This document shows positions 1 to 40,548 of a stretch of 45,526 bases of DNA, one piece after another. The notes under the pieces were generated by a model. The model was not told where the DNA came from, made no database searches, and saw only the letters and a program-made list of their open reading frames with translations. Each line of letters starts with the position of its first letter. The stretch's first letter is position 1. The translations under genes were made by a program, and so were the position numbers. Source of the stretch: Pseudomonadota bacterium (GTDB lineage: Bacteria > Desulfobacterota > Desulfobulbia > Desulfobulbales > SURF-16); contig JAUVQZ010000002.1 of assembly GCA_030597865.1 (NCBI GenBank), forward strand, positions 1 through 45,526. The letters run 5' to 3'.

Positions 1-367
1 CCTCCCGTAGGAGTCTGGTCCGTGTTCCAGTTCCAGTGTGGCGGATCATCCTCTCAGACCCGCTAACCATCGTAGCCTTGGTAGGCTCTTACCCCACCAA
101 CTAGCTAATGGTACGCAAACTCATCCAAATGCGATAGCTTCCAAGGAGAGGCCATCTTTCTTCACTTTATCTTGCGATTAAGTGAACGTATCAGGTATTA
201 GCTAACCTTTCGGTCAGTTATTCCAGACACCTGGGTAGATTATCTACGTGTTACTCACCCGTGCGCCACTTTAATAAGTTCTCCGAAGAAAACCGTTCTC
301 GTTCGACTTGCATGTGTTAAGCACGCCGCCAGCGTTCGTTCTGAGCCAGGATCAAACTCTCCAGTTT
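1..367 (-). rRNA. rrs: 16S ribosomal RNA, 5' portion only (gene continues past the left edge)
   Basis: The reverse complement of 341-360 is AGAGTTTGATCCTGGCTCAG (universal 27F site). The reverse complement of 1-14 is ACTCCTACGGGAGG (universal ~338-351 region). The 5' end is placed by E. coli numbering, +/-5 nt. Confidence 0.95.
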
Positions 368-22507: not shown

Positions 22508-23809
22508 ATGATCAGAGACCCCGAGCCCAAAAAAAAATCAACCAAGCATCTGCCCGCCGGTGATGTGCGCAGTTATGTCAGGGTGCTGCGCCGCAACCCC
22601 CACTTTAGGCGTCTCTGGCTTGCCGGGGTTATCAGCCATATCGGCAACTGGTTTAACTATATCGGCATCTTTGTCCTGTTAAACGAATACACCGGTTCCG
22701 GGCAGGCGGTGAGCTGGTTTCTCATTGCCAAGTTCTTGCCCTCTTTTCTATGGGGACCGGTTGCCGGCGTCATTGCTGACCGCTTGCCGCGCAAGATGAT
22801 CATGATTGCCGGTGATCTTAGCCGGGCCCTCATTGTGCTCGGTTTTCTCTATGTTGATGATGCCAGCCGCCTCTGGCTCATCTATGTCCTGGCCCTGGCC
22901 CAGGAAACCGTCTGGACATTCACGGATCCGGCCCGGCGGGCCTCCATCCCCAATCTCTGTGCCAGGGAGGAGCTCAAGGTTGCCAATAGCCTCAACGGCG
23001 CAACCTGGTCTGTTATGCTGGGGGTGGGAGCTGCCCTGGGGGGCTATGTTTCCGCCCGTTTTGGCTGGCAGACCGCTATTATTGTCGATGCGGCAACCTT
23101 TATTGTTTCGGCCGCCCTGTTGACCGCCCTGCCCCTGCCCCACCGGCCCCGGGAGAAACAACCGGTAAAAACATGGTCAACCATGCTGGGCCTCACCGAC
23201 CTCAAGGAGGGCTGGAGTTACATTATCCACCACCCAAAGACAGCCCGCCTCATGCTGGTGAAAAGCGGCTGGGCCATGGCCGGTGGTATTTTGGTCATGC
23301 TCACCATTTTTGGCGAACAAATTTTCGGGGGGGAGGGCGGCGGCAAGAGCGGCGTGCTCTACTCAGCGCGTGGCGCCGGCGCCGCCCTTGGCCCTTTAAT
23401 GGCCTGGAATATATTTGGCGAGGAAAAAAAAGATATGACACGGGCCATCGGCTTTGGCTTCTTCATGGCTGCCGCATCCTATCTCTGCTTCAGCCAGGCC
23501 ACCTCACTCTGGCTGGCAGCGCTCTTTGTCTTCTCTGCCCATCTTGGCGGCTCCGTCCAATGGGTCTTCTCAACAACACTGCTGCAGGAGATGGTGGAAG
23601 ACCGCTTCCGGGGCCGTGTTTTCGCAGCGGAGATGGCTCTTGTCACCCTGATTCTGTCCATCTCCACCTGGTTCACCGGCTTTGTCCTTGACCTGGGGGT
23701 GGCGCCCCGTCTGGTCACTGCCGGGCTGGCAACCTGCTTTCTCCTGCCCGGCCTGGTCTGGAGCCTGTCCGAACGCCGTCAATCAGAAGATCCATCAAAA
23801 AAGCAGTAG
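22508..23809 (+). CDS. MFS transporter
   Basis: The 433-aa ORF has about 12 hydrophobic segments and a GVIADRLPRK loop motif. Its 3' end overlaps the convergent maturase gene by 31 nt. Confidence 0.85.
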   Translation: MIRDPEPKKKSTKHLPAGDVRSYVRVLRRNPHFRRLWLAGVISHIGNWFNYIGIFVLLNEYTGSGQAVSWFLIAKFLPSFLWGPVAGVIADRLPRKMIMIAGDLSRALIVLGFLYVDDASRLWLIYVLALAQETVWTFTDPARRASIPNLCAREELKVANSLNGATWSVMLGVGAALGGYVSARFGWQTAIIVDAATFIVSAALLTALPLPHRPREKQPVKTWSTMLGLTDLKEGWSYIIHHPKTARLMLVKSGWAMAGGILVMLTIFGEQIFGGEGGGKSGVLYSARGAGAALGPLMAWNIFGEEKKDMTRAIGFGFFMAAASYLCFSQATSLWLAALFVFSAHLGGSVQWVFSTTLLQEMVEDRFRGRVFAAEMALVTLILSISTWFTGFVLDLGVAPRLVTAGLATCFLLPGLVWSLSERRQSEDPSKKQ

Positions 23810-25365
23810 GGATCCTTCTCAGTAAAGACATCCAGGCCCATGCCATGGCTTACGGCCAGGCAACCGCCACAGACAGCCCGTATTTTACAGTCATTGCAGG
23901 CCTGGGATCCTGCCCGGTATTTGCGGGCCGCCTCAGAGTGATAGATCTCCGACAGGGTGCTTTCACAGGTATTACCGATGTGGGACGGAAACTTACGGCA
24001 GGCATGGACCTCGCCCTCGGCCAGAAGCGACAGAAAATTGAAGGCCGCCCCACAGCCATAGCCCGTACAACCGCCAAACAGCTCCCTGCCATCTTTGGCA
24101 AACAAGGTGTTTAGATGATTGTCCTTGAGCCCCATACAGGGATTGGCCAGGGAGGCCTCATAATAGCGACGCAGGAACCCCCCATAGCCCTTGGTGGGCG
24201 CCGACAGGAGCTGGGCACCTTCGCCCACCATGGCCAGCCGATTGAAATTAAAGAGATCAACCTTGCCCCTGAGAACCTCGGCCAGGGGCAAAACCTGCTC
24301 CTGGTTCTCCCTGGTCAGGGTCAGCATGACCATGGAATAGATGCCCAGGTCCTTTAAAATGGCCAGAAACTCGATGGTCCGTCTAAAATGACCGGCACCA
24401 CGGATATGGTCATTATGCTCGGAAAGACCCTCCAGGCTGACCTGGTAAAATTCAAGGGGCTGGATGGCCTGCAACTCCTCAAGGCTCTCCCTTGGCGCAG
24501 GATTACCAAGAATCGCCAACTGAAAACCACGGGCAGAGGCGGCCTGGTAGAGTTCGCTAAAACGGGGATAGAGCAAAGGATTGCCACCGGTAAAGGTCAC
24601 CTGACCATAGACATGGTGCTCCCGGCAGAAGGCCCGGAAATCATCAAGAATGGTGAGTGCCTGGTCATATGCGACGGCCGTGCGGCTCGTCCGGTCGTAG
24701 CAATGTTTGCAGTGGAGATCACAGGCCTGGGTAATATGCCATTGCAGGGTAAAGGCCGATGAGGAGAGATACCTCTTGGCCGTGACATCATTTGCCTTAA
24801 AAACAGAGGGATCCCGGCGGATGGTGGTTTCCGGGACCAGGATGTACTCCTCGTCTTCAGCCCGTTCCAGGATACGGTCCAGATAGGCCAGGGTCACCCC
24901 ATGCTCGACAGCCGCCTGGGCCAGGTCAACATCCTCTTCAACAAGCTTTAAGGCCAGAAGATCCTGGGGGCCGGCATTTTTATAGCGCACCGCGCCACTG
25001 GCAAGGCGCCAGACCAATACCAGCTGTTCGCCCGGCCTGCCCTCCTCATCCCGGCCGGCCAGGATGGGGGCAAGATTCTGCCAGGGAAACTGGGCAAGTC
25101 GAAGGGTGGGATTAACAATGCCCCTTTCAACAGGGGGGGCCGGATCCACCTCAAGCCGTTCCACCTCCGCCACCAGCTCCTCAAGGCGGGCAAGATCGGG
25201 GAGAAAGGGGGGCAGGTGGAAATCTTTCACATGGCTGGCCAACCAGTCGGCCATGCCAAGGGATGGCCGCTTATCATTGGCCCGGAGGGATTGGGCAAGA
25301 ATTGCCTGGGAACGTGGGTAATCGGAAATCATCTCTATGGGTACCACCTGGATCTGATCCTTCAA
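23779..25365 (-). CDS. sbtM: radical SAM/SPASM-domain peptide maturase, SbtM-like (thio(seleno)oxazole-forming family)
   Basis: The sequence has a CDLHCKHCY (CxxxCxxC) SAM cluster and a Cys-rich SPASM C-terminus (CGGCTGYGCG...CRKF...CNDCKIRAVCGGC). A ~200-aa N-terminal extension precedes the radical SAM core. The gene lies directly downstream of a Sec-encoding peptide gene. The start is uncertain among TTG 25365, GTG 25347 and ATG 25332, because a terminator T-run abuts 25365. Confidence 0.78.
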   Translation of the reverse strand: MKDQIQVVPIEMISDYPRSQAILAQSLRANDKRPSLGMADWLASHVKDFHLPPFLPDLARLEELVAEVERLEVDPAPPVERGIVNPTLRLAQFPWQNLAPILAGRDEEGRPGEQLVLVWRLASGAVRYKNAGPQDLLALKLVEEDVDLAQAAVEHGVTLAYLDRILERAEDEEYILVPETTIRRDPSVFKANDVTAKRYLSSSAFTLQWHITQACDLHCKHCYDRTSRTAVAYDQALTILDDFRAFCREHHVYGQVTFTGGNPLLYPRFSELYQAASARGFQLAILGNPAPRESLEELQAIQPLEFYQVSLEGLSEHNDHIRGAGHFRRTIEFLAILKDLGIYSMVMLTLTRENQEQVLPLAEVLRGKVDLFNFNRLAMVGEGAQLLSAPTKGYGGFLRRYYEASLANPCMGLKDNHLNTLFAKDGRELFGGCTGYGCGAAFNFLSLLAEGEVHACRKFPSHIGNTCESTLSEIYHSEAARKYRAGSQACNDCKIRAVCGGCLAVSHGMGLDVFTEKDPYCFFDGSSD

Positions 25366-25478: not shown

Positions 25479-25847
25479 CTACTTTTGGCTGCCTCAGCTG
25501 GAACCTGCAGCACCCTTCTTTTTCTCGACACTCCCGGTGTCGGGATGGGCGCCTCAGCTTGAGCCTGCTGCATCTTTTTTCTTTTCGACACTCCCGGTGT
25601 CGCCTTTTGTACCACCTCAGCTGGAGGCGGCTGGATCAGCCTTTTTATCAGTGCTCACGGCACTGTCTTTTGTCCCGCCTCAGCTGGATCCTGTCTGATG
25701 CTGCCCCTTGTCGGCGCCACCTGCGCCGGTTTTAGGAGGGCCTCAACTACTACCTGCATGGGCCCCGGGAACAGCAACTCCTGCTCCGGCAATGAGTCCG
25801 GCCAGACCGAACCGTGCCAAAGTTTTCTTGAGTTCCTTGACTTCCAC
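25479..25847 (-). CDS. tandem-repeat peptide with five in-frame UGA (selenocysteine) codons; SbtA-like RiPP precursor candidate
   Basis: GTG 25847 lies 6 nt after GGAGGAGG (25861-25854). The frame reads MEVKELKKTLARFGLAGLIAGAGVAVPGAHAGSS U GPPKTGAGGADKGQHQTGSS U GGTKDSAVSTDKKADPAASS U GGTKGDTGSVEKKKDAAGSS U GAHPDTGSVEKKKGAAGSS U GSQK, then TAG (25481-25479). The TGA codons are at 25745-25743, 25682-25680, 25619-25617, 25556-25554 and 25496-25494. The first four each have a downstream SECIS-like hairpin. If the fifth TGA is the true stop, the CDS is 25494..25847. Confidence 0.72.
25526..25542 (-). promoter_or_regulatory. SECIS-like hairpin 4
   Basis: Minus-strand CGACAC-CGGGA-GUGUCG begins 11 nt after UGA 4. 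Confidence 0.65.
25586..25602 (-). promoter_or_regulatory. SECIS-like hairpin 3
   Basis: Minus-strand CGACAC-CGGGA-GUGUCG begins 14 nt after UGA 3. Confidence 0.65.
25649..25665 (-). promoter_or_regulatory. SECIS-like hairpin 2
   Basis: Minus-strand CAGUGC-CGUGA-GCACUG begins 14 nt after UGA 2. Confidence 0.65.
25712..25728 (-). promoter_or_regulatory. SECIS-like hairpin 1
   Basis: Minus-strand CGGCGC-AGGUG-GCGCCG begins 14 nt after UGA 1. Confidence 0.65.
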
Positions 25848-25985
25848 GACGTTCCTCCTCCACAAAGGATTTTGTGAGATGCAGAGATTGCAGGGAAACA
25901 ACCTCCACCCATGGTGACAGAAATCAGTATGTCATAACCCATCAGCTTTTTCCACCTGCTTTTATGAACAGATAGAATTTTCCTA

Positions 25986-34922: not shown

Positions 34923-35046
34923 TTGACGGGGCCAGAGGGTTTTGGGTATAGATGGACTCAGCATTTCCGGAGACATTTTGCAGATCCTCCTCCCAATTAC
35001 GTATAAAGGCAGGGCCAGCAGCCAGACCCCGCAGGAATAAAAAGAT

Positions 35047-36151
35047 ATGTCAGCAGAACTCCAACAGAAACTCCAAGGCTACAAAGACCGCCTTCTCACC
35101 TTACAGGTGCATCTTTGACCTAGCCGGCAAACAAGGACAGCTTGCCGAGCTTGAACACCAGACCATGAACCCGGACTTCTGGAATGATCCGGACAAGGCC
35201 CGCCAGACCCAGATTGCCATTGGCCGTCTGCAGGACCCCATTGATGGCTGGCAGGGCTGCTACGACATAGTTGAGGATGCGGAAATACTCCTTGAGCTAG
35301 CCCGTGAGGAGAAGGACGCCGATACCGAGCAGGAGGCTGGCGAGACCATTGCCTCCCTTGAAAAACGCCTGGAAGATTTTGAGCTTGAATGCATGTTCAG
35401 CGGTGAGCATGACAACAGCAATGCCATGCTCACCATCCATGCCGGTGCCGGCGGCACCGAGGCCCAGGACTGGACCGATATGCTGCTGCGCATGTTCCTG
35501 CGCTGGTGCGAGAAGAAAAATTTCCAAACCGATATTCTTGACCTGCAGCCCGGCGATGAGGCAGGGGTCAAGAGTGTCACCCTGATGATCAAGGGCAAGT
35601 ATGTCTACGGCTATCTGCGCTCCGAGGTGGGTATCCACCGCCTGGTCCGCATCTCCCCCTTTGACACCAGTGGCCGCCGCCACACCTCCTTTGCCTCGGC
35701 CTTTGTCTTTCCAGAACTTGACGACGACATTGAGGTGGAAATTATCGACAAGGACCTACGTGTCGATACCTACCGGGCCAGCGGCGCCGGGGGCCAGCAT
35801 ATCAACAAGACAAGCTCAGCAATCCGCATCACCCATATCCCCACCAATATTGTCGTCCAATGCCAGAATGAGCGTTCCCAGCATCGCAACAAGGAGACGG
35901 CCATGAAGATGCTCAAGACCCGCCTCTATGAACGGGAACAGGAGCTGCAGAGGGAACAGCATGAGGTCATTGGTGGAGAGAAAAAAGAGATCGCCTGGGG
36001 CAGCCAGATCCGCTCCTATACCATGCAACCCTATCGCCTGGTCAAGGACCACCGCACCAATCAGGAGAGCGGTAATGTCGAGGCGGTCATGGATGGTGAT
36101 CTCGACCCCTTTATCAAGGCCTACCTCCTATGGCAGGGCAACAACAAATAG
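35047..36151 (+). CDS. prfB: peptide chain release factor 2, programmed +1 frameshift (join 35047..35115, 35117..36151)
   Basis: Frame 0 reads MSAELQQKLQGYKDRLLTLQVHL and then meets CTT-TGA-C (35113-35119), with SD-like AGGTG 3 nt upstream. The +1 frame continues DLAGKQGQLAELE...SPF...GGQH(I)NKT (SPF and GGQ motifs). Confidence 0.93.
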
Positions 36152-37374
36152 TACATAGATGTGCCAAATGCGGGGCCTGCACCCCGGTCTGCCCTGTCTA
36201 CCAGAGCACGGCCAGGGAATCGCACACGGCCCGCGGCAAGCTTCACCTCTTTAAGAGGGGCGGCTCTTTTGACTCTGCCTATTTTAATGATCTGCTCTCC
36301 AAATGCATCCAGTGCGGGGCCTGCGATGATGTCTGCCCCCGTAATTTAAACCCCAGCGCTGACATCCGCGCCTGGCGGGGTCAGCAGCCCTTTGGCCGTG
36401 ACCCGCACGCCTTTGTAAAATTTCTCAGCAGAAAGGTGCTGGCCAGCCCCCTGCTCCAGGAGGGGGGCAGCCATACCCTGCGTGCCCTCTTTGCCAGCCT
36501 GCCGCAGGCAAGCGGCCTGCGAAAACGCCTTGACCTCCTCGTCCCCGGGCTGACAGCACGACCACCCCTGCCCCCCTCCAAGAAAAAGAGTGGCTCCAAA
36601 CCCCTTTCCTATTTCCCCGGTTGCCTGGCTCAACATCTCTATACAAATATTAAAGCGGCCACGGCTCTTCTGGCCAACAACTGCGGCTATGAACTGTACA
36701 GCCCTGCCTCGCTCACCTGCTGCGGCTTGGCCTCCCATGCCTCCGGCAATATGAAAGAGGCCCGGGCCGCAGCCAGAAGGAACATTGCGGCCTTCGGCGC
36801 TGGCACTCCCGGCGCTGGCACTCCTGGCGTTACCACTCCCGGCGTTACCACTCCTGCTGACCCTGACGGCCCCATCCTCACCTCCTGCGCATCCTGCACC
36901 AGTCATCTCATGAGCTACCCAGCTCTCTTTACTGATGACCCGGAGATGCATAAAAAGGCGCTGGCCTTTGCCCGGCGCATCCAGGAATTTTCCACCTTTT
37001 TTCTTGGCCGGGAGGGACTGACATCCTCCCACCCCCAAGAGACCCTTTTTTACCATGACCCCTGCCACCTCCGTTTTGGCCCCTGCCAGGTCATAAAAGA
37101 GCCGCGCCAACTGCTCACCGAAATGAACGGCTGCCCCCCGCTCCCCCTGCCCCCACACTGCTGCGGCCAAGGCGGCCTCTGTCACCTGACCAACCCTGAC
37201 ATTTCCAAGGATATTTTCACCAGGGCGCAACACCCTCTTGCGGAACTTTCAACAGCAACGGTGGTCACCACCTGTAGCGGCTGCCTGCTCCAATGGCAAC
37301 AGGGTTTAGCCAAGGCCCCCCACACAGCGGAGCATCTTGCCGTTTTCCTTGCCAAAATAAGCGAGGATTGCTAG
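36130..37374 (+). CDS. (Fe-S)-binding oxidoreductase subunit, GlcF/HdrD-like (2x4Fe-4S plus CCG domains)
   Basis: The sequence has CAKCGACTPVCP and CIQCGACDDVCP ferredoxin motifs and two Cys-rich CCG-type regions (FPGC...CCG; HDPCH...CCGQGG). It overlaps the prfB 3' end by 22 nt. Confidence 0.8.
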   Translation: MAGQQQIVHRCAKCGACTPVCPVYQSTARESHTARGKLHLFKRGGSFDSAYFNDLLSKCIQCGACDDVCPRNLNPSADIRAWRGQQPFGRDPHAFVKFLSRKVLASPLLQEGGSHTLRALFASLPQASGLRKRLDLLVPGLTARPPLPPSKKKSGSKPLSYFPGCLAQHLYTNIKAATALLANNCGYELYSPASLTCCGLASHASGNMKEARAAARRNIAAFGAGTPGAGTPGVTTPGVTTPADPDGPILTSCASCTSHLMSYPALFTDDPEMHKKALAFARRIQEFSTFFLGREGLTSSHPQETLFYHDPCHLRFGPCQVIKEPRQLLTEMNGCPPLPLPPHCCGQGGLCHLTNPDISKDIFTRAQHPLAELSTATVVTTCSGCLLQWQQGLAKAPHTAEHLAVFLAKISEDC

Positions 37375-37410
37375 TTTGAGATACTATTTTTTCTAAAAAA
37401 AGGAGCGTCC

Positions 37411-38262
37411 ATGAAACTACACAGGCATATCATTGTTACCCTTATCGCCCTCTATTTGCCGGCATCGGCCCTGGCGGCCATTGACTGGTCTGTTGACCAA
37501 AGCATTGAGACCAAGGCTAGCATCAAGCACATGGCCCCATCCTTTGACGGCAACAGCCTCTTTGTCCTCACCGGCACCAACGAGCTTGTCATGTATGATG
37601 CCTCAGGAAAGGCCCTGGGAAGCATGAAGGTTGATCCAGGCATGGACCAGATCCACCTGAGCGGTTTTCAAAAGGCCGGCGTTCCTGAACAGATCTTTGT
37701 GGCAAACTCGGCCACCGGCCAGATCCAGAGGCTCTCCTTCAGCCTGGTGGCCAAGATTGACCTCAGCGGCAGCCCGTTCCTCGGCAATGCTGACGCCCCG
37801 GTTGCCCTGGTGGTGTACAGCGACTTTCAATGACCCCACTGCGCCCAGGCAGGGGCGTTACTCGAGCAGGTGCTCGAGCAAAATCCAGACACCGTAAAAA
37901 TCGTCTTCAAACATTTCCCCCTGAGCTTTCACAAACAGGCCCCAGCCGCAGCCCAGGCAGCTATTGCTGCCCATAAACAGGGGAAATTCTGGCAGTACCA
38001 CGATCTGCTCTACGAAAACCATAAGACCCTGACCGCTCAAAGCTATGAAGGCCTTGCCACCGAGCTTGGTCTTGACCTGACCACCTTTAACCGTGACCGC
38101 ACGAGCCCCCAAACCCGTCAGCAGATGAGCGCTGACATCAATGGCGGTAAACAGGCAGGTGTCACCGGCACCCCGGCCATATTTGTCAATGGCCACCGCC
38201 TGAAAAAACGGACCCTGCAGGACATCCAGGCAATGATTGACGCGAAACTCAAAAAACCCTGA
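37411..38262 (+). CDS. DsbA-family thiol:disulfide oxidoreductase selenoprotein (U-P-H-C active site; TGA 37831-37833 read as Sec)
   Basis: Track ORFs 37411..37833 and 37870..38262 are in the same frame and are separated only by one TGA. Read-through gives ...VALVVYSDFQ-U-PHCAQAG...VKIVFKHFPLSFHKQA...GKFWQYHD...GVTGTPAIFVNG. This is a DsbA fold with Sec replacing the first Cys of CPHC. Hairpins lie downstream at 37841-37858 and 37861-37878. Confidence 0.78.
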
Positions 38263-39381: not shown

Positions 39382-39828
39382 ATGCCCGTTCTGCTGAGCA
39401 ATAGGTACGGCGGCCCCTGCCATATCTGCCTTGACCTCTTTATCAAAAGGGCCGAAGAACTTCTTTGCCTGGCTGGGCTGGAAGGCCACGAACTCTCCCT
39501 GCTGCTCCTTGATGATCCGGCCATGCAGGAAATAAACAGGCAGTGGCGCCAAAAGGATAAGGCCACCAATGTCCTCTCCTTTCCCCAAGGCCTTGATGAT
39601 GATTTTGATCAGCACCCCATGCTCGGCGATATCATCATTTCCATTGACACGGCCCATCAAGAGGCAATTGATAGGGGCATCTCCCTCCACCACCATCTGA
39701 CCACCCTGCTGGTCCATGGTTTTGTTCATCTGCTGGGCCATGACCATGAGCGCTCAGACCACGATGCCGAGGAGATGTTTGGCCTCGAACACTCTTACTT
39801 ACAAGCACTAGCAACAAGGAGAACAAAG
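39382..39828 (+). CDS. ybeY: rRNA maturation endoribonuclease YbeY (no stop codon of its own; the frame continues into pdxJ)
   Basis: The zinc motif [12 protein letters not shown] is present. The ATG lies 2 nt after the phoH stop. Confidence 0.8.
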
Positions 39829-40548
39829 ATGGTTAAACTCGCCATAAATGTTGACCACGTAGCCACCCTGCGTCAGGCCCGTGGCAACACAGAACCAGAC
39901 CCGGTCACGGCCGCCGCCATTGCCGAGCTTGCCGGGGCCACTGGCATTGTTGTGCATCTCCGGGAGGACAGGCGCCATATGCAGGACCGTGATATCGACA
40001 TCCTGCGCAAGACCGTACAGACCAAGCTCAACCTGGAAATGGCAGCGGCTGAAGAGATTATTAAGATCGCCCTGGACCTGCAACCGGACATGGTCACCCT
40101 GGTTCCGGAAAAACGACAGGAGCTGACCACCGAGGGCGGCCTTGACGTGGCGGGTCAGATAAAAAAACTCAAAAAGGTTATTGCCAGGCTGGCCAAAAAG
40201 AATATTCCGGTGAGCCTCTTTATCGACCCTGACCCGGCCCAGATCCAGGCCTCAAAAGAGGTGGGCGCCACCTTTGTGGAGATCCACACCGGCCGCTATG
40301 CCGATGCCAGCAGCGAGGAGGAGGAGGATAAGGAGTTTGAGCTCATTGCAACGGCAGCCGAAGAGGCCTATGAAGCAGGTCTGCGGGTTTATGCCGGTCA
40401 CGGTCTCAACTATGTCAATGCCGGCCGGGTGGCAGCCCTGCCCACCATTGAGGAACTTTCCATCGGCCATGCTGTCATGGCCCGGGCAATCTTCACCGGC
40501 CTTGACCAGGCTGTCCGCGAGATGGTGGATATCTGCCGGTTCGCCTAA
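39829..40548 (+). CDS. pdxJ: pyridoxine 5'-phosphate synthase
   Basis: ATG 39829 lies 8 nt after AAGGAG and gives [19 protein letters not shown]...[10 protein letters not shown]...VEIHTG...HGLNY. Confidence 0.9.

Follow-up and report, generated by a model that had tools for sequence, protein, structure and literature searches.

A DsbA-like gene with an in-frame TGA at its active site and a putative SECIS element: a predicted selenoprotein gene from a member of the Desulfobulbales

DsbA-like proteins with selenocysteine (Sec) in place of the first cysteine of the CxxC redox motif (UxxC) were described in the selenoproteome of the Sargasso Sea (Zhang, Fomenko & Gladyshev 2005; PMC1088965). A DsbA-like selenoprotein was subsequently recorded in complete genomes, among them those of Anaeromyxobacter dehalogenans, Desulfovibrio desulfuricans and Desulfotomaculum reducens (Zhang et al. 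2006; PMC1794560) and, in 2007, in the Olavius delta-1 symbiont (PMC1976440), and a 2026 review carries the entry 'DsbA-like protein form 1, PF01323, UxxC' (PMC13188914). Here we analyse a gene at positions 37411..38262 (+) of a 45,526 bp stretch of contig JAUVQZ010000002.1 (assembly GCA_030597865.1; GTDB Desulfobulbales, SURF-16), referred to below as the window. We put at roughly 0.9 the probability that this is one gene, interrupted only by an in-frame TGA, and that it encodes an exported DsbA-type oxidoreductase with Sec as its first active-site residue. UxxC DsbA-like selenoproteins have been known since 2005 and are common in sulfate-reducing relatives, and the gene is not new in kind; only the bipartite layout of its selenocysteine insertion sequence (SECIS) region and its propeller-fragment N-terminal domain might be new.

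The gene shares with the known family a DsbA-type fold, Sec in place of the first Cys of CxxC, widespread Cys homologues, a bacterial SECIS (bSECIS) stem-loop just downstream with a G in its small apical loop, and enrichment in anaerobic Deltaproteobacteria/Thermodesulfobacteriota. It differs from the family of 2005 (COG2761, FrnE-like) in that it scores best with PF13462 and resembles BdbD, ScsC and 3gyk, and in that the protein carries an additional N-terminal two-blade propeller-like domain. We therefore place it among the known DsbA-like UxxC proteins, perhaps as a distinct subfamily. The best-scoring NCBIfam model over the catalytic domain, NF041057 (Rcas_1661 thioredoxin-like (seleno)lipoprotein, 'DsbG-like'), also describes a UxxC family with Cys members; membership was rejected because the match (E 1e-26, 93.6 bits) lies below the cut-off of 190 bits, there is no lipoprotein signal, and the N-terminal region differs.

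One reading frame across an active-site TGA

Two open reading frames (ORFs), 37411..37833 (140 aa, starting with ATG) and 37870..38262 (130 aa, starting with GTG), lie in the same frame on the plus strand, and the first-pass annotation had proposed that TGA 37831-37833 is all that interrupts them. Translation of 37411..38262 as a whole bears this out: the TGA is the sole internal stop in 283 codons, in the context ...PVALVVYSDFQ-*-PHCAQAGALLEQVLEQNPDTVKIVFKHFPL... (VVYSDFQ-*-PHCAQAG), and the gene is terminated by TGA 38260-38262, with another TGA directly after. The locus comprises the following features.

37401..37405 (+): Shine-Dalgarno-like AGGAG, 5 nt 5' of the ATG, predicted from the sequence
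37411..38262 (+): complete predicted selenoprotein coding sequence, 283 codons including Sec141
37411..37476 (+): predicted signal peptide of the Sec export type, MKLHRHIIVTLIALYLPASALA, from sequence features and an Ala22 invariant in the homologue alignment
37480..37764 (+): N-terminal extra domain, residues ~24-118, matching no Pfam family
37768..38244 (+): DsbA-like thioredoxin-fold catalytic domain with helical insert, residues 120-278
37831..37833 (+): in-frame TGA predicted to be read as Sec141, the nucleophile that comes first in the redox motif (the Cys/TGA column of the alignment)
37831..37842 (+): redox motif U-P-H-C, from the translation and the homologue alignment
37841..37858 (+): hairpin 1, GCGCCC-AGGCAG-GGGCGU, 7 nt past the UGA
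37861..37878 (+): hairpin 2, CUCGAGC-AGGU-GCUCGAG, 27 nt past the UGA, encoding L-E-Q-V-L-E
38170..38175 (+): Thr254-Pro255, in the cis-Pro loop facing the active site, both residues invariant in the alignment

A search of a 5.8-billion-protein collection returned 858 relatives, the best of which are 276-305 aa long and cover 92-100% of the query, and thus have the same two-domain architecture. The proposal that the TGA stands at the first Cys of the CxxC motif agrees with an alignment of 19 full-length homologues (276-305 aa), where this column is Cys in 19 of 19, the surrounding consensus is F-S-D-F-[EQ]-C-P-[YHF]-C, and conservation 3' of the column is strong at QGKFW and at the GTP that holds the cis-Pro. 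The first-pass annotation had named homologues ending at this position as grounds for abandoning the idea. Since the Cys homologues are full-length across the TGA column, homologues do not stop there, and the TGA forms found in the genome scan below also run on. With the stop replaced by Cys, both PF13462 (Thioredoxin_4; residues 120-278, E 1e-27, 97.7 bits, cut-off 23.2) and PF01323 (DSBA; E 2e-20, 73.6 bits, cut-off 25.6) span the TGA, and PDB profiles match the catalytic domain at 7e-28.

Scanning 185,579 species, one genome each, with [FY][ST][DE]F[QE]-TGA-P-[HY]-C as a DNA pattern (which leaves out CPFC forms) recovered at least 120 loci with TGA at the active site, against fewer than 10 matches expected by chance according to our own rough estimate, made by hand. 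The recurrence of the TGA form is far beyond chance. Among the matches listed, 121 of 121 are in-frame DsbA-like ORFs that continue for ~140 or more codons past the TGA, and their hosts belong to the Desulfobulbaceae, Desulfocapsaceae, Desulfurivibrionaceae, other Desulfobacterota, Anaerolineae/Chloroflexota, Myxococcota and Phycisphaerae; cultured carriers are Desulforhopalus singaporensis DSM 12130, Desulforhopalus sp. IMCC35007 and Desulfopila sp. IMCC35006. The closest relative among these matches is the Sec form L117, from a Desulfurivibrionaceae metagenome-assembled genome, with 79% identity over 282 aa, and the C-terminal part is 84% identical to L117 and to a second Sec form, L001. The nearest Cys form, P0001, has 67% identity, and further Sec forms follow at 58% and 56%.

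The gene order lnt-prfB-glcF-like-dsbA-phoH-ybeY/pdxJ is common to the Sec forms L117 and L073, and to L093 from prfB on; L001, covered only from the C-terminal part of dsbA downstream, agrees over that part. A Cys form, L121, occupies the same neighbourhood slot, so that Sec and Cys alternate at one orthologous locus.

Downstream hairpins and selenocysteine decoding

UGA is normally a stop codon in this organism and its recoding is local, as indicated by two observations from the window. TGA terminates 11 of the 27 confidently identified genes, the dsbA-like gene included, and prfB, which encodes release factor 2 (RF2; 35047..36151, +), carries the canonical autoregulatory +1 frameshift site CTT-TGA-C (CUU-UGA-C) at 35113-35119, its true start being ATG 35047 in another frame than the long ORF 34952..36151. 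Genome-wide reassignment of UGA is ruled out by the same two observations.

A second gene with in-frame TGAs lies in the window. The radical-SAM maturase SbtM is encoded at 23779..25365 (-) (TIGR04082, 685 bits against a cut-off of 350), with the sbtA precursor gene directly upstream at ~25479..25850 (-) (leader TIGR04081, 36.7 bits against a cut-off of 30.5). The sbtA core has five in-frame TGAs, each in the form S-S-[TGA]-G, at 25745, 25682, 25619, 25556 and 25496. Four of the five are followed by SECIS-like hairpins with a 6-bp stem and the loops AGGUG, CGUGA, CGGGA and CGGGA, which start 17-20 nt past the UGA, and the fifth by a different hairpin; one sbtA hairpin and hairpin 2 of the dsbA-like gene share the heptamer GCAGGUG. 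SbtA is a documented Sec-containing precursor of a ribosomally synthesised and post-translationally modified peptide (PMC9204691), for which the literature gives a GGUG motif and Sec residues numbering "at least two", and the five-repeat SSUG precursor may be an unusual variant. The presence of this second UGA-recoded gene beside sbtM argues that the organism decodes Sec, and Sec use is known from the Desulfobulbaceae, Desulfotalea psychrophila among them (PMC1794560). No other long same-frame ORF pair split by TGA in the window was coherent; sbtA itself came to light by way of the adjoining sbtM.

The first-pass annotation had listed both hairpins downstream of the active-site UGA as candidate SECIS elements. 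Re-reading and folding reproduced their positions and distances from the UGA, but only hairpin 2 retained the assignment, on the grounds of the bSECIS consensus and covariation, and hairpin 1 was reclassified as an accessory helix. Hairpin 2 has a 7 bp stem and a 4-nt AGGU loop, with G in loop position 2 and again in the next, a UGA-to-loop distance of 34 nt and a minimum free energy (MFE) of -10.7 kcal/mol when folded alone. It falls within every limit of the published bacterial consensus, namely a loop of 3-9 nt, a 4-16 bp stem, a G within the loop's first two positions, a UGA-to-loop distance of 16-37 nt and an MFE of -7.5 kcal/mol or less (PMC13188914). In a shuffling test of hairpin 2, one shuffle out of 200 folded as well, and comparison with dinucleotide shuffles puts the 76-nt region at a z-score of -3.3. 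Rfam at gathering thresholds gave no family match in the dsbA-like region, its sole hit being a 16S fragment. An MFE fold of the window sequence that pairs the UGA itself (UGACCCC with GGGGCGUUA) was discarded, as only L117 and L061, the closest relatives, share it among the sequences folded.

For the comparison between Sec and Cys forms, 66 nt from the U of the UGA were laid out for all Sec forms among the genome-scan matches listed (at least 120 loci), with 80 metagenome loci encoding relatives, mostly Cys forms, as a control; the orthologue sets consist of the sequences that carry the N-terminal domain (62 Sec, with TGA, and 11 Cys). In the Desulfobacterota clade CUCGAGC-AGGU-GCUCGAG is common at +31..+48 from the U of the UGA, and compensatory variants occur (GAAC/GUUC, GACC/GGUC, GAUC/GAUC and CUUGAGC/GCUCAAG). 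All 62 Sec orthologues form 6 or 7 of the 7 pairs, whereas the 11 Cys orthologues form 2-5 and none reaches 6 (Fisher 3e-13), and the local MFE averages -9.8 kcal/mol for Sec forms, -2.2 for the 11 Cys orthologues and -2.5 for all 80 Cys forms. In an alignment of 61 sequences, 93.9% of the helix 2 cells are paired, and pair 36-43 is never broken (GC 50, AU 4, UA 4, CG 1, GU 2); A38, G39, U41 and G42 are invariant across the Sec orthologues.

In pair 36-43 the third position of a Glu/Asp codon pairs with the first position of the codon after next, and the codons are matched as GAG/CUC (Leu), GAA/UUC (Phe), GAU/AUC (Ile) and GAC/GUC (Val), so that compensation replaces Leu by Phe, Ile or Val. 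Cys forms with GAU retain CUC, CUG, GUC, GUU or AGG, and pairing would be possible for only some of these. Just 8 of the 1152 synonymous encodings of LEQVLE yield 7 pairs. Compared with random synonymous codons, Sec forms have 6.55 pairs where 4.35 are expected, and Cys forms 3.14 where 3.01 are expected. The excess of pairing together with the covariation indicates that selection acts on the RNA structure itself, and does so only in forms with TGA at this codon. We take hairpin 2 to be the SECIS proper, presumed to be the stem-loop bound by SelB.

The SECIS of E. coli fdhF is a minimal hairpin ~11 nt past the UGA, with a GGUC-type loop (G23/U24) and a bulged U. Hairpin 2 resembles it as an in-frame stem-loop downstream of the UGA with GGU in the apical loop, but the loop lies 34 nt past the UGA (~18-20 in fdhF), there is no bulged U, and an extra hairpin of variable sequence stands between the UGA and the SelB-type hairpin. 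The fdhF type is thus not matched, as hairpin 2 starts 27 nt past the UGA, places GGU at +39..+41 and has a perfect stem. SECIS design and distance differ between lineages: in Myxococcota and Phycisphaerae the hairpin is GGGUC-GGUC-CGACCC, with the G23/U24 of E. coli fdhF, and the Chloroflexota forms have several other hairpins. Tandem DsbA modules were seen on several contigs of apparent Myxococcota type (L154, Ga0163179_10021610; L149, L157, L176, L182, L185, L189 and L190). In L154 each of three modules has TGA at the active site, followed in the first two by AAGGUC-GGUC-CGACCUU SECIS hairpins and in the third by a different sequence.

Hairpin 1 folds alone at -10.4 kcal/mol. Its position is conserved (3' end at +28 from the U of the UGA) and its sequence and loop are not. 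The MFE helix occupies exactly +11..+28 or +15..+28 in 40 of 62 Sec orthologues compared with 1 of 11 Cys orthologues, and the mean MFE of +4..+30 is -8.3 kcal/mol in Sec forms against -5.1 in all 80 Cys forms (p 7e-12, uncorrected for phylogeny) and -4.6 in the 11 Cys forms with the N-terminal domain. Double changes are found in 4 of its 6 pairs. With a single fixed register 68% of cells are paired; two registers coexist, and any one register therefore fits only part of the family.

Could hairpin 1, standing where the E. coli fdhF element stands, be the SelB-binding SECIS, with hairpin 2 as the accessory? Its loop in the window, AGGCAG, has G at position 2, its span of +11..+28 is at a distance like that of the minimal E. 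coli hairpin, 11 nt past the UGA, and it is more stable in Sec than in Cys forms. However, the loop varies among the Sec orthologues (AAGCAG, AAAAUUGA, CUUG and others), in many cases with no G at either of its two leading positions, the helix occurs in two registers, the UGA-to-loop distance of 13 nt falls under the consensus minimum of 16, and the invariant A38, G39, U41 and G42 belong to hairpin 2. We consider this exchange of roles improbable. Hairpin 1 is probably a real accessory or spacer helix rather than the hairpin recognised by SelB, and hairpin 2 keeps the role of SECIS. Without the 18 nt of hairpin 1 the spacing of 34 nt would shrink to 16 nt, and with the sbtA spacing in view we propose for this helix a putative role as structured spacer or pause site, in which it most likely offsets the long UGA-to-loop distance.

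Other readings of the TGA

Ribosomes might pass the UGA with no selenium involved, either inserting Trp or Cys through near-cognate decoding or bypassing the codon under stimulation by the downstream structure. Stable downstream hairpins can promote stop-codon read-through in general, and selenium incorporation here is predicted from sequence. The position, though, is that of the catalytic Cys, where function is preserved by Cys or Sec only; the hairpin fits the SelB-type consensus, its GGU loop recurs in an sbtA element, and the pattern of UxxC against CxxC within one family is the documented signature of DsbA-like selenoproteins (PMC1088965). Read-through of this sort is very unlikely.

A nonsense mutation from TGC or TGT to TGA in a Cys-type DsbA-like gene, with incidental hairpins, would make the locus a pseudogene, an alternative that the first-pass annotation had itself raised. 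TGA is one base from either codon, Sec and Cys interconvert within the clade (the Cys form P0001, at 67% identity, lies between Sec forms at 79% and 58%), and sel genes were not found in the window. Against this, TGA occupies the same codon in at least 120 species-level genomes with intact downstream frames, a covarying SECIS hairpin is present only in TGA forms, and a second multi-UGA gene, sbtA, lies in the same window. The ratio of nonsynonymous to synonymous substitution rates (dN/dS) over the 142 codons past the TGA is 0.19, 0.24, 0.26 and 0.16 for four Sec orthologues, similar to or lower than the values before the TGA; the downstream part is under purifying selection, and the range of 0.16-0.26 contradicts decay. 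The pseudogene reading is effectively refuted by conservation, and we leave it only a marginal chance. A separate observation concerns synonymous divergence (dS) from L117, which is lower past the TGA (37834..38259) than before it (0.47 against 0.86) and may reflect RNA-structure constraint or chance.

There is next to no prospect of two genes here, a secreted beta-rich protein of 140 aa ending at TGA 37833 and a protein of 130 aa starting at GTG 37870. In favour of this split stands the output of a mechanical ORF caller; it is opposed by the Pfam and DsbA-fold domain that crosses the ORF junction, by a second ORF that would have no active-site motif, first beta strand or signal peptide, by Cys homologues that are all single proteins of 276-305 aa, and by the location of GTG 37870 within the conserved hairpin 2.

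Several points weigh against a selenoprotein at this locus. The statistics that separate Sec from Cys forms are not corrected for phylogeny. The 34-nt spacing is near the consensus maximum and 14-17 nt beyond that of the sbtA elements, and the geometry of SelB delivery is unexplained unless hairpin 1 is invoked. ARAGORN found no tRNA-Sec in the 45 kb window (0 tRNAs), nor did NCBIfam models find selA, selB or selD among its ~38 ORFs. Finally, one Cys form with TGT, L143, keeps a perfect hairpin 2, so that the hairpin alone is no proof of current Sec use. All considered, we regard the dsbA-like locus as very probably a genuine selenoprotein gene, with incorporation of selenium predicted.

The L143 locus (contig PJEL010017780.1) has its Cys codon TGT in ...EFSDFQCPYCAKIQPLLEQVLK... 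and the 7-bp hairpin CUUGAGC-AGGU-GCUCAAG at +31..+48, probably a fossil SECIS left by a recent conversion of Sec to Cys (TGA to TGT). Two further Cys forms, L129 and L130, retain 5 of 7 pairs of hairpin 2, with pair 36-43 broken.

Protein architecture and gene neighbourhood

An AlphaFold2 model from a 20-sequence alignment has a predicted local distance difference test (pLDDT) score of 90, and above 90 for the catalytic domain. The latter (residues 120-280) matches 3gyk and B. subtilis BdbD in Foldseek with a template modelling (TM) score of 0.8, normalised to the target, and other good structural matches are ScsC, Corynebacterium DsbA/TsdA and Wolbachia DsbA. The model has the hallmarks of the DsbA fold: a thioredoxin fold, a helical insert (helices 177-248), a CxxC motif opening helix 1 (here U141-P-H-C, at which helix 143-157 begins) and a cis-Pro loop. 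We take Thr254-Pro255 to be of the T-cisP type of BdbD, ScsC and DsbC and not the V-cisP type of E. coli DsbA, presuming a cis conformation. The signal segment is modelled as a helix over residues 3-13 with low pLDDT, and cleavage is likely after A-L-A, judging from the sequence. No lipobox Cys was found in the signal peptide, which ends A-L-A-A, and residues 1-140 are without Cys.

The extra N-terminal domain that the first-pass annotation had placed after the signal peptide is recovered in the model, where residues ~24-118 form seven beta strands (pLDDT ~90, and 88 when modelled alone). No Pfam family matches it even at E up to 1, and the YVTN propeller of 1l0q matches it weakly by profile. 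Its best full-coverage Foldseek matches are the two-blade designed fragments Cake2 (6tjb) and v13Bagel2 (8pr9), with target-normalised TM scores of 0.69-0.70 and weak E-values of ~2e-3. Both are propeller fragments that self-assemble. On the strength mainly of the TM-score, the strand pattern and the weak YVTN match, we predict a two-blade beta-propeller fragment for this domain. The module may oligomerise, which would put the enzyme in analogy with oligomeric DsbA-fold isomerases/reductases such as ScsC, DsbC and DsbG.

ScsC is a trimer, DsbC and DsbG are dimers and BdbD is monomeric. The protein resembles all four in its catalytic fold (Foldseek TM 0.6-0.8, target-normalised), a CP[HY]C-type motif, the Thr-cisPro loop and a non-catalytic N-terminal module ahead of the catalytic domain. 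It differs in its Sec nucleophile and in that the N-terminal module is a predicted propeller fragment and not a helical stalk or DsbC-type dimerisation domain, with any oligomerisation putative.

In the mechanism we propose, UGA 37831-33 would not be read by RF2 but recoded by a complex of SelB, GTP and Sec-tRNA(Sec), recruited presumably by binding to the in-frame SECIS at 37861-37878 (7 bp, AGGU loop), while the helix at 37841-37858 between the UGA and the SECIS could serve as a structured spacer or pause element. The product, ordered as signal peptide, two-blade propeller-like N-domain and DsbA-fold catalytic domain, would undergo Sec-dependent export and then signal-peptide cleavage. The enzyme would cycle between selenol/thiol and selenenylsulfide, with Sec, of low pKa and highly nucleophilic, as attacking and leaving group in disulfide exchange. 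Its proposed site of action is the anoxic periplasm of a Desulfobulbales-type bacterium, acting on putative physiological substrates there.

That the Desulfobacterota have both a bipartite Sec signal (spacer hairpin plus AGGU hairpin) and a propeller-hub enzyme is a tentative idea, which we think rather doubtful in its joint form. If the first part held, the spacer hairpin (+11/+15..+28) would bring the AGGU hairpin (+31..+48) to working distance and reconcile the 34 nt with the 17-20 nt spacing of sbtA under the same SelB. If the second held, a closed beta-propeller would carry several Sec-active DsbA domains, an undescribed architecture for an oligomeric disulfide isomerase/reductase that would be analogous to trimeric ScsC. 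The two-hairpin layout and the propeller-fragment N-domain are leads, and leave the understanding of Sec decoding and of Dsb systems unchanged.

Ordinary gene callers would split this gene and its orthologues or paralogues, of which species-representative genomes hold at least 120, into two ORFs or call them pseudogenes, and NF041057, the nearest curated selenoprotein model, misses the gene and its relatives. A dedicated subfamily model would recover a widespread periplasmic selenoprotein in Desulfobacterota, Chloroflexota and Myxococcota. The family is also a clean natural data set in which Sec and Cys switch at a single orthologous, syntenic locus, with lineage-specific SECIS designs, a probable fossil SECIS and replacements of Leu by Phe, Ile or Val dictated by pairing.

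Directly upstream, 36130..37374 (+) encodes an Fe-S oxidoreductase that is GlcF/GlpC/HdrD-like and has two CCG domains and two ferredoxin-type clusters, with a 22-nt overlap with the end of prfB and a 36-nt gap before the dsbA-like gene. This neighbour is conserved in the Sec forms L117, L073 and L093 and in the Cys form L121. The 'GlpC-like Fe-S oxidoreductase' is a known selenoprotein family, and the GlcF-like oxidoreductase of the window is a Cys form and intact. Two genes upstream of the dsbA-like gene lies prfB, whose product RF2 competes with SelB at UGA; this arrangement is syntenic in the same four relatives. Downstream, a single ORF of 388 aa at 39382..40548 (+) joins ybeY, for an rRNA maturation RNase, to pdxJ, for pyridoxine 5'-phosphate synthase. 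In tblastn searches the fusion gave one continuous match in L001 and L121 and two separate matches in L061, L093 and L043, so that it looks lineage-specific. At the start of the window, a bacterial 16S rRNA gene runs off the edge, and its 5' part is present at 1..367 (-) (RF00177, 297 bits).

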